From NCBI GenBank assembly GCA_000002445.1, contig CH464491.1:2688001-2752000 (forward strand): DNA of 64,000 nt. The letters are read 5' to 3'. The position numbers and the translations under genes are program-made. The stretch comes from Trypanosoma brucei. Lineage: Eukaryota. Shown here in pieces: positions 14,168 through 18,678 of the stretch. Every line of letters starts with the position of its first letter. The stretch's first letter is position 1. The notes under the pieces are model-generated. The model did no database searches and was not told where the DNA came from. It was given only the letters and a program-made list of their open reading frames with translations.

Positions 14168-14556
14168 AATGGTAGGTGATACACAAAAGCTCGTTGGAAT
14201 AGAAAGCTGTGTACAACTGAATATATATTTTTTAAATCATAAAAAAGGGATGAACAAAGCCCCATCGAACAAGGTCGATGCGACACATATCATAAGGCAC
14301 ACAAAGAAGAATACGAAACAGCTATTACAGTAAACTGAGCGACAGAAGAAATTACAAAAAAATATTAAAAACTATAAAAAACCTGCGGAAAGAAGCTAAC
14401 TGACATACTTACGAAAAACCATTAAAATAATACGCAAGAACAAAAAAATAATTCAACTTCATCCCCTATCAAAAAAAAAAAAGAACACACAAACGAAAGG
14501 TAAATTAAAAATAAAACGGAAAAATAAAAAAAAAGATAGGTCGATATGACAGATGC

Positions 14557-15378
14557 GGCGTGAAGCTCTGCCACTGGTGCATCAGTAGCTCGGCATTACT
14601 GTGTTCGATGCTCTGCGCTCAGTGGACATGATGCTCCGCCGCCCATATATCCCGTTATGTATATCCTGTGTGCGCTCTAGTTCCGTTGGGACCCTGAAGA
14701 GTAAGCACACTAAACCATGCATTATACATGACCATACCCCATATATACACAATTGTAAAGCTCTTTTATGTAGTGTGCGTACCACGAAAGTAGCAGGTAC
14801 TGCACACGAAACTGGAGAGCGAGACTCTTCATTTCGACTATGGACCATATGGTTGTAGCCGTTGAATGATGACTGACAAAACATCACAGACTTTGATGAC
14901 CCCATGAACAAGAAAAATTGTCGCCCCAGACTGATTTTCACTCCCACCCCTGTATACTGACACTGGCACTTTCCTGCCGCTGTCACTGTCGCTGTTTTCG
15001 TTCATACTCTCAAATACTCTCACATTCACACACTCTTTCTCCTTCCCCTCCTTTTGACCCTCTTTGTTGTTGCCACCGTGAAGTGATTGACACCTAGGCC
15101 GATGTAAAGCCGTCGCAGATGGACGTCGATATCTTGTGAAAACAGTACTATTTTATGCCCTGACTGATCGCCGTGGCCGCCCCACTCACTACGTTTGTTG
15201 TGTAGTGTACATCCCTCTCATTTTGCTCCGTCCCCCCTCCCTCTCCTTCTGTTTCCCTTTTCTCCCCTCTTCCTTTCAGTTGGCACCGCGACAAGGTCAG
15301 CCTGAGGGCACACCTTCAGTGTGTGTACGGCCTCGGGAGGGCGTATATCCGCTCGAGTCGCAGAGCGAGGGAAATGGT
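14557..15378 (+). repeat. tandem repeat unit 1 (~822 bp), candidate snoRNA cluster repeat
   Basis: Identical ORF artefacts recur at +822 nt (14582-14986 vs 15404-15808; 14601-14858 vs 15423-15680); unit begins ggcgtgaagctctgccactggtgcatcag. Confidence 0.85.
14860..14940 (+). ncRNA. candidate C/D-box snoRNA (copy 1)
   Basis: ccgttgAATGATGActgacaaaacatcacagactttGATGACcccatgaacaagaaaaattgtcgccccagaCTGAtttt: C box AUGAUGA 14866-72, D' CUGA immediately after, C' UGAUGA, D CUGA 14931-34; ~75-80 nt spacing typical of trypanosomatid C/D snoRNAs; located in tandem repeat. Confidence 0.5.
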
Positions 15379-16193
15379 GGCGTGAAGCTCTGCCACTGGT
15401 GCATCAGTAGCTCGGCATTACTGTGTTCGATGCTCTGCGCTCAGTGGACATGATGCTCCGCCGCCCATATATCCCGTTATGTATATCCTGTGTGCGCTCT
15501 AGTTCCGTTGGGACCCTGAAGAGTAAGCACACTAAACCATGCATTATACATGACCATACCCCATATATACACAATTGTAAAGCTCTTTTATGTAGTGTGC
15601 GTACCACGAAAGTAGCAGGTACTGCACACGAAACTGGAGAGCGAGACTCTTCATTTCGACTATGGACCATATGGTTGTAACCGTTGAATGATGACTGACA
15701 AAACATCACAGACTTTGATGACCCCATGAACAAGAAAAATTGTCGCCCCAGACTGATTTTCACTCCCACCCCTGTATACTGACACTGGCACTTTCCTGCC
15801 GCTGTCACTGTCGCTGTTTTCGTTCATGCCCTCAAATACTCTCACATACTCACACATTCACACACTCTTTCTCCTTCCCCTCCTTTTGACCCTCTTTGTT
15901 GTTGCCACCGTGAAGTGATTGACACCTAGGCCGATGTAAAGCCGTCGCAGATGGACGTTGATATCTTGTGAAAACAGTACTATTTTATGCCCTGACTGAT
16001 CGCCGTGGCCGCCCCACTCACTACGTTTGTTGTGTAGTGTACATCCCTCTCATTTTGCTCCGTCCCCCCTCCCTCTCCTTCTGTTTCCCTTTCCTCCCCT
16101 CTTTCTTTAAGTTGGCACCGCGACAGTTTATTTTGAGTTTTTGCCCTTTATGGTTTATCTCTATGAAAACTGTCGAAGATTAAGGGAAATAAT
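15379..16193 (+). repeat. tandem repeat unit 2 (~815 bp), ~98% identical to unit 1 with small indels near the 3' end
   Basis: Same start sequence ggcgtgaagctctgccactgg at 15379; differences include a 10-bp insertion near 15835 and divergent 3' end. Confidence 0.85.
15682..15762 (+). ncRNA. candidate C/D-box snoRNA (copy 2, one substitution 5' of C box)
   Basis: Same sequence at +822 nt; gtaaccgttgAATGATGA... CTGA. Confidence 0.5.
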
Positions 16194-16259
16194 GGCGTGA
16201 AGCTCTGCTGCTCGTGCATCAGTAGCTCGGCGTAATTTTGTTTGATGCTCTGCGCAATG
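16194..16259 (+). repeat. partial third repeat unit (5' ~66 nt only), then divergence
   Basis: ggcgtgaagctctgctgctcgtgcatcagtagctcggcgtaattttgtttgatgctctgcgc matches unit starts with substitutions. Confidence 0.7.
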
Positions 16260-16640
16260 TATACTCTTTGTTGAACTGTATTTTTGTTTACTTTTTGACT
16301 CTGAGTTTTTACTTGTGATTGTGATGCTCAAACCCTTTTTTTTCGCCTGATGCGCTGTATGTAATGGACTTGATGCTTATCTCTTTCGGACAATGATGAC
16401 GCATGTTGTAGTGTGACGCTCGATGATTTAATCGTGTGATGCTCCTCTGCACTGCCCTTTGTTGTTTGTTAAGGTGGTCGATGCTCAGTCCTATAGCACA
16501 TGATGCTCTGCCGTTGTTATACTCGCTATGCACGAAGTTGGTACTCTAGTCTGTTTGACCTTGATGAGTTGCCTGCTTTGGTATGTTGCATCGCACATAA
16601 TTCCCAGTGCATCTTATGTGGAAACTGTACTTGCGTTAAT

Positions 16641-16760
16641 CTACCTATTTTTTATTTGTCACTTTTTTTGTACATTTTCCCCTTCTTTTTTTAACTCTTG
16701 ATCATGGACGTGAAAAGTTAGGTTGGTTACTGGCTGTGCTATTTCTTTTTTTTTTACTTT
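16641..16760 (+). promoter_or_regulatory. polypyrimidine tracts upstream of PGAM5-like gene (spliced-leader acceptor region)
   Basis: ctacctattttttatttgtcactttttttgtacattttccccttctttttttaactcttg and tatttctttttttttttactttg precede ATG 16786. Confidence 0.5.
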
Positions 16761-16785
16761 GTTGGTGGTGCTTGTTTGTGATATC

Positions 16786-17700
16786 ATGACGGTGTTGTCA
16801 CGGGTGCTTCTGGGTGCAGCGGTGGGAAGTGTGAGTGCGGCATTTAACATAGCGTGGTGTGATTCATCATTGCAAAGCGGTTCTGTGCTTTCTGTAAACA
16901 GTTTACTGCCTGTGGATGAAATTATTAGAGCGGATGGAAAGAACGCCAGTCTTAAGTCTTGGGGTGTTCCGTGGGTTGAGGATTGGGACTGTCTTGAGGC
17001 GAAGGACGGAGCGGCGGGAAAAAGTTCGGGGCATAAACGCCAGCTGATTTTGATACGTCACGGGCAATACCAAAATGAGAAGAGTAGTGATGACCGGCAA
17101 CGCACTCTTACTCAACTTGGGGAGGAACAGGCGAGACTCACCGGAAGGTATTTGTGGCAGGCGTTTCAGCAGAAACGTTTGGTGAAGGAACTGGGTAGTG
17201 AACCGGCGCTTGGGGTTGATAACTTCATGGGCGGGTTGTTGCGTTTCCATGAGCCGAAAGAAATCTACGTCTCGGATATGACTCGTGCTCAGCAAACTGT
17301 CAAACTCATAACGGAAGCTTTTCCCTACCACATACGTGCGCGAGTAAAAACTGATCCCATTCTTAGGGAGCGGTATCCCTGTGACCCTCAGCCGCCGCAT
17401 AAGCACCGATCTGCAGCGCACAGCGACATGTTAGCGGTGGAGGAGGTGTTCAAAAAATATTTTCATAGACCCTTAAAGGACGAGTCGTCTGTCGAGGTTA
17501 TTGTGGGACACGCCAATGTCATTCGGTATTTGGTGTGCCGCGCACTGCAGTTGCCCCCAGAAGCGTGGCTGCGCATTTCGCTTCCCCACTGTAGCATCAC
17601 AAGTCTCGTGATTGGTGCAAACGGTCACGTCAGTTTATCTTCGCTTGGGTCGGCAGGGCACCTGCCCGTCGACATGGTCACAACTCATAACGTTCCGTAA
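16786..17700 (+). CDS. PGAM5-like histidine phosphatase (phosphoglycerate mutase family Ser/Thr phosphatase) with N-terminal membrane anchor
   Basis: ORF-track start 16723 is TTG; first ATG 16786 gives MTVLSRVLLGAAVGSVSAAF anchor; RQLILIRHGQY catalytic RHG motif; IVGHANVIRYLVCRALQLPPEAWLRISLPHCSITSLVI nearly identical in pattern to human PGAM5 [37 protein letters not shown]. Confidence 0.85.
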   Translation: MTVLSRVLLGAAVGSVSAAFNIAWCDSSLQSGSVLSVNSLLPVDEIIRADGKNASLKSWGVPWVEDWDCLEAKDGAAGKSSGHKRQLILIRHGQYQNEKSSDDRQRTLTQLGEEQARLTGRYLWQAFQQKRLVKELGSEPALGVDNFMGGLLRFHEPKEIYVSDMTRAQQTVKLITEAFPYHIRARVKTDPILRERYPCDPQPPHKHRSAAHSDMLAVEEVFKKYFHRPLKDESSVEVIVGHANVIRYLVCRALQLPPEAWLRISLPHCSITSLVIGANGHVSLSSLGSAGHLPVDMVTTHNVP

Positions 17701-18678
17701 TTTGTTTTAAAAGCGGTGAAAGGGGGAGGGGTCGCCGCGGAAATAATACTAAGGGCGGGACCTTTTCTGTTTTCCTTCTTTTTTCCTTACTTGGGTGTGC
17801 GTCAGATGAAATAAGGAAAAAAAACTGAAGGAGAAGGACGGTCAGGTCGGTGTCGTTCAGCTTTGCGCGAAGGCTTGTGCCGGCAGTTTATGTCTCTAAG
17901 ACTCAGGTGATGTGTTTTCCTGCATCTCTCACCCAAAGCACACACACACTTACGTGCGCATGGTTTTCCTCTCTTTATGTCTCTATTTGTTTGCGTCCCC
18001 TTTAGTGGTGTAAAAAGCGAGGAGATCCTTCGGCTCTCATCCTTTTAGCTTCTTTCTCCCCTTCGTTTTGTTTCTTTCTTTAATCCCTCGTTCACCTCTT
18101 TGCTTATTCAAGGTATTTTTGTGGGGGTTACCGTTTTCAGCTAAGACAGATAAGTGTATTTTCGTTAGTGTCTTTTTTTTTTTTTGCAAGCCACTGCATA
18201 GTAAGCCCTTTTGTTGTTTTTAAATCTCCCCACTCAAGGCCCTCATGAACAATCCCACCGGTGAGTGTACTCATTTAGTCTCGTGCGTGGACCTAGGAGC
18301 GCCAAGATTTCATTCACTTGAGATAGGGGTGACAGCCAGAGGCAGGAAAAAAATACAGCAACAACGAAAGTTGTGGAAGTGTGGACGTGATGAAGAAAAA
18401 TTATTTACTTCTGTTTGGAGAGGGTTCAGGAACACTCTCCATGACGTTACCATAATTAATCCATTCTCTGATCACGTTCAGTCGCTTCTTCTTTCCTCCC
18501 CCTTTCCGCGTCCCCTGTGTTAGTTACAACATTTAACGTGATGAAAAACCTTTCATGCTGTGTGACGTACTCCCTTATGAGGGCAGGCACAAGCTGCTTG
18601 CGGCCTAGTGTCATGCAATTGATTATAGACGGCATTCTGAAAAAGTAACTTACTCTCTCTCCCCTCCTTTTGTTTACC

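Follow-up and report, generated by a model that had tools for sequence, protein, structure and literature searches.

The SLA1 locus of Trypanosoma brucei (snoRNA cluster TB11Cs2) has long been known. Published accounts of the cluster give its contents as SLA1, an snR30 homologue, TB11Cs2C1 (76 nt), and TB11Cs2C2 (92 nt) (PMC2978370, PMC6411936), and its composition and functions are also covered in PMC3273796. In these papers the RNAs of the cluster are described as processing or chaperone RNAs and not as conventional rRNA-modification guides. TB11Cs2H1 is SLA1, the guide for pseudouridine 28 of the spliced-leader (SL) RNA (PMC9283944); it is a known H/ACA molecule whose level drops upon silencing, an observation that bears on its dependence on CBF5 (PMC3091756). 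The long RNA of the cluster has been treated as an H/ACA snR30 in two studies (PMC2978370, PMC2664660). RNAs of the snR30/U17 type are recognized by two motifs, m1 and m2, with a described consensus (PMC7601244), and in the snR30 of T. brucei m2 is invariant and an altered m1 is compensated in the 18S rRNA (PMC2664660). An interaction of TB11Cs2C2 with rRNA was reported with cross-linking and snoRNAi (PMC2978370).

The window analyzed here is a stretch of 64,000 nucleotides of T. brucei DNA, in which a first-pass annotation, made from the sequence alone, had marked three snoRNA-like elements, referred to below as elements (i), (ii), and (iii). The interval that contains them is almost certainly one unit of the tandemly repeated SLA1 locus of a T. 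brucei-group chromosome, the unit being ∼822 to 832 nt long and carrying four small RNAs on the + strand. The flagged elements are genuine small-RNA genes of an already known locus, and nothing in them is new. Overall, the observation was confirmed and its interpretation partly supported: elements (ii) and (iii) had been placed in the right class, and element (i) had been given the wrong boundaries and, probably, the wrong class.

Layout and conservation of the array

The RNAs follow one another in each unit in the order snR30/U17 homologue (∼270 nt), SLA1, TB11Cs2C1 (76 nt), and TB11Cs2C2 (92 nt), all on the + strand, as are the flanking protein genes. All four Rfam families were matched over their full models on the + strand, with 82 to 140 bits against gathering scores of 40 to 45, and the E values of the elements ranged from 1e−16 to 1e−35. 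The ends of the RNAs listed here combine the boundaries of the Rfam models with the points where conservation stops.

14557..14731, + strand: probable snR30/U17 homologue (TB11Cs2C3), copy 1, 5′-truncated; Rfam snoTBR17 (RF00294) at 14614-14733, 139.8 bits over model positions 1 to 119 of 119, gathering score 40; contains element (i)
14757..14827, + strand: SLA1 (TB11Cs2H1), copy 1, element (ii); Rfam RF01537, 82.1 bits over model positions 1 to 70 of 70, gathering score 40
14863..14937, + strand: TBR7/TB11Cs2C1, copy 1, 76-nt C/D snoRNA; Rfam snoTBR7, 92 bits, gathering score 45
15072..15177, + strand: TBR5/TB11Cs2C2, copy 1, 92-nt C/D snoRNA (RNA body 15080-15169) with its external stem, element (iii); Rfam snoTBR5, 106.6 bits, gathering score 44
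15284..15553, + strand: probable snR30/U17 homologue, copy 2, complete, ∼270 nt, 5′ end approximate; Rfam snoTBR17 at 15436-15555, conserved block from 15296
15579..15649, + strand: SLA1, copy 2; Rfam RF01537, 82.1 bits over model positions 1 to 70 of 70, 100% identical repeat
15685..15759, + strand: TBR7/TB11Cs2C1, copy 2; Rfam snoTBR7, 92 bits
15912..16001, + strand: TBR5/TB11Cs2C2, copy 2; Rfam snoTBR5, 109.1 bits, one base different from copy 1

A repeat search found an exact second copy of the 300-nt block 14557-14856 at 15379-15678, a spacing of 822 nt, and a 98% identical copy of the 290-nt block 15004-15293 lying 832 nt downstream. Tandem Repeats Finder did not detect the array because its longest period was 500. 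A third start of the long RNA was found at ∼16077-16255, where the first 15 nt and a central block are kept, after which the sequence decays into a stretch rich in TGATGC-like repeats that reaches up to ∼16600. The PGAM5-like protein encoded downstream of the array (16783-17697) is 100% identical to its T. equiperdum counterpart, which places the window in the T. brucei group. A scan for bacterial-type promoters and terminators, which is irrelevant for a trypanosome, returned nothing above background.

The motifs quoted in the first-pass annotation were found at the positions given for them in all three elements, and its claim that these are snoRNA-class genes within a tandemly repeated unit is upheld by the Rfam scores, the repeat, and conservation across species. 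The unit had also been described as a "standard" trypanosomatid cluster of several C/D snoRNAs with one H/ACA RNA; it holds instead two H/ACA-type and two C/D RNAs. TBR7 (RF00295), which is conserved in four species, lies within the flagged interval and was not among the three elements marked there.

Syntenic loci were fetched via the PGAM5 orthologues. The RCC1-like gene, the array, PGAM5, and the IQ-protein gene follow one another in this order in T. cruzi, T. grayi, T. melophagium, T. theileri, and T. equiperdum. In all of these species but T. theileri, whose array is broken by an assembly gap of 734 N, Rfam identified the four RNAs in unchanged order, in tandem units of ∼690 to 840 nt. In the RCC1-PGAM5 interval of Leishmania donovani, none of the four families was matched with E values of up to 0.1 allowed, and Leishmania was therefore unusable for covariation. 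With one unit per species, four species aligned, and T. brucei as the reference, identity to T. brucei was 75 to 79% for the snoTBR17 part (75% of columns invariant), 69 to 77% for SLA1 (62% invariant), and 79 to 83% for TBR5 (76% invariant). The four spacers, at 8 to 36% identity and with 0 to 9% of columns invariant, were essentially unalignable. Spacer-like divergence over the elements, which the first-pass annotation had named as evidence that would count against it, is thus absent by a wide margin, the RNA bodies being 69 to 83% identical where the spacers are 8 to 36% identical.

The box motifs taken by themselves carry little information. The pattern ATGATG-N50-80-CTGA has 6 matches in the window, where 3.4 ± 2.0 would be expected, and a count of 6 was attained in 13 of 100 shuffles; at this spacing short box motifs occur at about the random rate, so that the pattern alone is at chance level and uninformative, and the elements rest on Rfam, the exact 822-nt repeat, and conservation. 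That near-random rate is what could be said for regarding the motifs as chance matches in a non-functional repeat spacer. Such a view has practically no probability, however, given the Rfam E values of the elements, the blockwise conservation in four Trypanosoma species next to spacers that cannot be aligned, the compensatory changes described below, and the very high published read counts. Equally negligible is the probability that the repeat encodes a small protein, either from a 134-amino-acid minus-strand open reading frame (ORF; 14582-14986, again at 15404-15808) or from a 105-amino-acid plus-strand ORF (15136-15453). Both are present in a mechanical ORF listing, and gene callers have put minus-strand "genes" of 127 to 159 amino acids over the array of T. 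melophagium. However, ORF similarity to other species in tblastn was limited to stretches over the RNA bodies and was fragmented in T. melophagium and T. cruzi, the 105-amino-acid plus-strand ORF had no tblastn match in other species, and spacer indels of tens of bases fall inside the ORF.

SLA1 and the external stem of TBR5

Element (ii) is SLA1 (TB11Cs2H1), a single-hairpin AGA-box H/ACA-like RNA. This was the class already given to it, and the fold, the spacing of the AGA box, and the Rfam score of 82.1 bits all bear it out. The flagged hairpin lies at 14773-14807 and is then followed by GGAGAGCGAGACTC. The complete fold consists of a lower stem of 7 bp (14760-66/14814-20), an internal loop of 6+6 nt, an upper stem (14773-83/14796-807), and an apical loop. 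The first-pass annotation had suggested folding a "perfect hairpin" at 14775-14825. A hairpin is indeed present there, but its 3′ arm carries a 1-nt bulge (U14801), and it makes up no more than the upper stem of the complete fold, which has a minimum free energy of −25.8 kcal/mol and a z score of −3.75 (0 of 200 shuffles were as stable). In six sequences taken from four species, the SLA1 hairpin has 18 pairs with 97% of cells paired. Four compensatory pairs fall in the upper stem, and little or no variation is seen in the lower stem and in the two pocket strands (14767-72 and 14808-14).

The AGA box occupies 14822-24; the Rfam match ends 3 nt further on (14827), and G14808, at the top of the pocket, precedes the box by 14 nt. 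A distance of about 14 to 16 nt from pocket to AGA and of 3 nt from AGA to the end of the RNA is standard for H/ACA RNAs. A further AGA upstream (14816-18) is part of the lower stem and not a box; only the second AGA is the box.

The target of SLA1 is U28 of the SL RNA and not rRNA. When compared with the SL RNA sequence, taken from a primer in PMC2936537, the pocket strand GAAACUG (14808-14) is the exact complement of C21-C27 (CAGUUUC, 7 bp), and GUA (14770-72) pairs with U30-C32 (3 bp), with U28-G29 unpaired at the top of the pocket. Since the target is the SL RNA, a search for pseudouridylation pockets complementary to rRNA, as proposed in the first-pass annotation, would have failed.

Element (iii) is TBR5/TB11Cs2C2 (RF00292), a 92-nt C/D snoRNA. 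The strings by which it had been picked out were GTGAAGTGATTGA from 15078 and CTGACTGA at 15160-15167. Its C box, GUGAUUGA (15083-90), has a 1-nt insertion relative to RUGAUGA that is kept as GUGAUYGA in all species examined, and its D box, CUGA (15164-67), is conserved. The tandem CUGA described for this element does consist of two adjacent copies, but the first, unlike the second (15164-67), is not conserved in other species. The RNA is enclosed by an external stem (15072-81/15168-77) of −15.1 kcal/mol, a value matched by 0.4% of shuffles. This stem is kept with a differing sequence in each species, as CUGCUGC/GCAGCG in T. grayi, as CGCGGUGA/UCACCGCG in T. melophagium, and as GGCGAU/AUCGUC with a further segment in T. 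cruzi. The flanking complementarity that had been noted for element (iii) is genuine, as demonstrated by this covariation between species, and the assignment to the box C/D class stands. The two TBR5 copies differ at a single base, C15127 in copy 1 and T15959 in copy 2, which fits the inter-repeat differences mentioned in PMC2978370.

The long RNA that contains element (i)

Element (i) is probably the 3′ part of a ∼270-nt snR30/U17 homologue, TB11Cs2C3, and not a C/D snoRNA of ∼75 nt. Its sequence certainly belongs to the snoTBR17 family, the "CD-box" type attached to that family being doubted. From the position in the cluster and the motifs, we infer that snoTBR17 represents the 3′ 119 nt of the published snR30 homologue TB11Cs2C3. 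The assignment of the long RNA to snR30 draws on motifs, fold, and literature; no Rfam snR30/U17 model had a match at an E value of ≤1 in 14400-18600.

As drawn in the first-pass annotation, element (i), with the strings ATGATGC (14628-14634) and CTGA (14694-14697), is too short. The conserved RNA continues to ∼14731 and, in the complete copy, for ∼170 nt further 5′. The conserved sequence starts ∼140 nt 5′ of the C-like box, which corresponds to 15296 for the start in the complete copy, and reaches its 3′ limit ∼3 nt past an ACA, for a total of 258 to 277 nt in four species. Copy 2 (∼15284-15553) is the only complete copy in the window, within which the conserved 5′ block occurs once. Homology of the flagged copy (14557-14731) to the complete copy starts at 14557, so that the 5′ ∼90 nt are missing and the 5′ hairpin with them; upstream of 14557 the sequence is A-rich and unrelated, being the 3′ flank of the RCC1-like gene.

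RNAalifold predicted 5′, internal, and 3′ hairpins for the whole RNA, with 11 compensatory pairs overall. The 3′ strand of the internal hairpin is made up of the C-like UGAUGC (14629-34) and of the CUCCGCC that comes next, which is invariant; covariation is seen at two nearby pairs of this helix. In the 3′ hairpin, GUUAUGY pairs with RCAUUAY to give the lower stem (14654-60/14719-25), beyond which come an upper stem and, at the apex, a small hairpin covarying from U-A to C-G. The D-like CUGA (14694-97), which is UUGA in T. grayi, lies in the apical part of the 3′ hairpin. Across the internal loop of this hairpin, the m1-like AUAUCCU (14661-67) faces the m2 motif AAACCAU, which was found at 14712-18 and 15534-40, is invariant in five sequences, and was placed in the internal loop by RNAalifold. 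The m1 site, AUAUCCUG (14661-68), is one U shorter than the consensus AUAUUCCUA and is invariant in all species. An ACA (14726-28) directly follows the lower-stem strand 14719-25, and conservation ends ∼3 nt later. The string that joins m2 and ACA is confined to the two copies of the long RNA. A candidate H box, ACAUGA (14626-31), fits ANANNA in T. brucei, but the sequences aligned to it by eye in other species, GCCUGA and GUCUGA, do not. From a short alignment, RNAalifold had given an alternative lower stem, UGAUGC/GCAUUA, which was replaced by GUUAUGY/RCAUUAY in the fold of the whole RNA. Covariation favors neither version, as the only changes are from G-C to G-U; both of the substitutions in the lower stem that are found only in T. 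brucei are of this type.

The first-pass annotation had read element (i) as a C/D snoRNA with boxes ∼75 nt apart. In its wider form, this reading makes it a fibrillarin-binding box C/D snoRNA with UGAUGC as the C box and CUGA as the D box, either as a separate RNA of ∼80 to 120 nt or as a module within a longer RNA. It agrees with the typing of RF00294 snoTBR17 as CD-box in Rfam and of TB11Cs2C3 (snR30) as "C/D snoRNA" in supplementary file 6 of PMC6411936, and the alignment shows UGAUGCUCCGCCG unchanged in all four species and CUGA in three of them. Given the geometry of K-turns, neither the change of the final A of the C box to C nor the change of CUGA to UUGA in T. grayi need block a K-turn. 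However, the C-like box, AUGAUGC in T. brucei and CUGAUGC in the other species, departs from the RUGAUGA of a true C box, and in none of the species are the two boxes flanked by complementary sequences that would form a terminal stem. The C-like box sits in the internal-hairpin helix with covarying neighbor pairs and the D-like box at the apex of the 3′ hairpin, 34 nt from the 3′ end of an RNA that finishes in ACA plus 3 nt; conserved sequence stretches ∼140 nt upstream of the C-like box, the box pattern is at chance level, and both PMC2978370 and PMC2664660 take the RNA as an H/ACA snR30. With its boxes in different hairpins, without a terminal stem to join them, and with the hallmarks of snR30/U17 around them, a C/D snoRNA is unlikely here. 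A K-turn between AG (14678-79) and CUGA (14694-97) was also considered and was rejected on inspection for its wrong strand polarity.

Still less credit is given to a composite RNA, in which a K-turn of UGAUGC and YUGA in the snR30 homologue would recruit fibrillarin/NOP1 beside the H/ACA proteins; if true, this would explain the C/D typing in databases and in one published table. The separate suggestion that the truncated copy (14557-14731) could be expressed as a single-hairpin "mini-snR30" is held to be just as improbable.

Expression, proposed roles, and relation to known systems

In published small-RNP RNA-sequencing data, TB11Cs2C2 ranked 1st, SLA1 2nd, TB11Cs2C3 (snR30) 4th, and TB11Cs2C1 9th among all snoRNAs (PMC6411936, supplementary file 6). 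The lack of transcripts that the first-pass annotation had named as a further argument against the elements is answered by these data, in which all four RNAs are abundant. As is general in trypanosomes, the array would be transcribed together with its neighbors as one + strand polycistronic precursor, and each RNA would then be trimmed to boundaries protected by the snoRNP; the external stem of TBR5 probably helps C/D RNP assembly on the precursor. The roles given in the literature agree with the anatomy described above. The SLA1 pocket pairs on either side of U28 of the SL RNA and guides the formation of pseudouridine at that position, and SLA1 also serves as a chaperone for cap-4 maturation of the SL RNA. 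The snR30 homologue is reported to use the m1-like and m2 motifs of its 3′-hairpin loop for docking on 18S pre-rRNA and has been implicated in processing of the small-subunit rRNA, in which TB11Cs2C1 is likewise reported to act. TB11Cs2C2, according to published work, acts in the release of large-subunit rRNA fragments, being needed for the trypanosome-specific cleavages that free srRNA-2 and srRNA-6.

The value of these results is mainly in annotation, and the locus raises no new biological question. The elements can be labeled as the SLA1 locus (TB11Cs2), comprising the snR30 homologue, SLA1, TB11Cs2C1, and TB11Cs2C2, four RNAs that are among the most abundant small nucleolar-type RNAs of T. 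brucei. For curators, the snoTBR17 family carries the type "CD-box" but corresponds here to the 3′ hairpin of an H/ACA RNA like snR30, and it leaves out ∼140 nt of conserved 5′ sequence. In the present assembly, the first copy of the long RNA is 5′-truncated and the third is degenerate.

Compared with known systems, the long RNA resembles snR30/U17 (SNORA73) in the internal loop of its 3′ hairpin, with m1-like and m2 sequences on opposite strands, in the lower stem followed by ACA plus 3 nt, and in its length of ∼270 nt, and it shares an extra internal hairpin with yeast snR30. It differs in having AUAUCCU as m1 instead of AUAUUCCUA, in that no conserved H box was seen, and in its Rfam type of C/D. 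Element (iii) resembles snoTBR5 (RF00292) in its full-model match (107 to 109 bits), a D box 2 nt from the 3′ end, terminal and external stems, and position in the cluster; it departs from the usual C/D guide in the 1-nt insertion in its C box and, according to the literature, in acting in rRNA processing. TB11Cs2C1/snoTBR7, present here at 92 bits, is the 76-nt C/D snoRNA that has been proposed as a functional analogue of U14. Element (ii) agrees with the SLA1 of trypanosomatids (RF01537) in its hairpin, AGA box, SL RNA pocket, and neighbors TBR7 and TBR5, with no difference of substance, and is the T. brucei SLA1 gene itself.

Copies and units of the SLA1 array

The snR30/U17 homologue (TB11Cs2C3) is represented in the tandem SLA1 array by one truncated and one full copy, and the array closes with a degenerate unit.

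Array features (positions in the window)
14557-14731, + strand: snR30-homologue gene, first array copy, 5′-truncated
15284-15553, + strand: snR30-homologue gene, full copy, the sole complete copy within the window
16077-16600: degenerate third unit, 3′ end of the array
14582-14986 and 15404-15808, minus strand: 134-aa ORF

Relative to the full copy, the first lacks the 5′ ∼90 nt, corresponding to the 5′ hairpin. Homology between the two begins abruptly at 14557, a truncation point adjoining A-rich sequence on the 3′ side of the RCC1-like gene that precedes the array. The units are 822 and 832 nt long because of a 10-nt indel in a CA/CT-rich tract of the TBR7-TBR5 spacer (14938-15079 versus 15760-15911). 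Single substitutions separate them within the TBR5 interior (C15127/T15959) and just upstream of TBR7 (G14860/A15682). The third unit retains TTGGCACCGCGACAG and an 84-nt block (16172-16255; 83% identity), beyond which the sequence is decayed and rich in TGATGC-like repeats; faint similarity to the 3′ hairpin persists at ∼16499-16600 (ACATGATGCTCTGCCG...). No Rfam match was identified in this unit.

The long RNA, its upstream tract and its annotation

The conserved long RNA is ∼270 nt (15296-15553), and the 119-nt Rfam family snoTBR17 (RF00294) spans its 3′ part only. The snR30-type m1, m2, and ACA features are borne by the ∼270-nt conserved RNA, while Rfam types snoTBR17 as CD-box; both the type and the boundaries of RF00294 look out of date. 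The long RNA's conserved start (TTGGCACCGCG) lies directly 3′ of a long pyrimidine tract at 15190-15283 (and 16020-16113), ending ...CCTTTCAG or ...CTTTAAG, which looks like a candidate trans-splice acceptor.

Across the snoRNA array of the T. melophagium assembly (syntenic locus L005, 5746-9847), gene callers annotated minus-strand "genes" of 127 to 159 aa, equivalent to the 134-aa ORF listed above. These are almost certainly spurious calls on RNA genes.

Syntenic loci and a second snoRNA cluster

The T. theileri assembly carries a 734-N gap within the array (syntenic locus L003, 8559-10000), and the repeat is therefore collapsed or unresolved there. An SLA1-type array is absent from the syntenic RCC1-PGAM5 position of L. 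donovani (L006, 7905-10001); thus, the Leishmania SLA1 locus must be located elsewhere, away from this position.

Cluster TB11Cs3, 18236-18645, downstream of the PGAM5 gene
18236-18307: TB11Cs3H1 (Rfam, 93.8 bits)
∼18386-18472: box C/D-like RNA, GUGAUGA ... UUAAUCCAUUCUCUGA
∼18534-18645: box C/D-like RNA, GUGAUGA ... GACGUACUCCCUUAUGA ... CAAUUGAUUAUAGACGGCAUUCUGA

Neither box C/D-like RNA was matched by Rfam. T. cruzi and T. melophagium conserve both of them, and L. donovani also has the UUAAUCCAUUCUCUGA block of the first. The two are probably TB11Cs3C1 and TB11Cs3C2.
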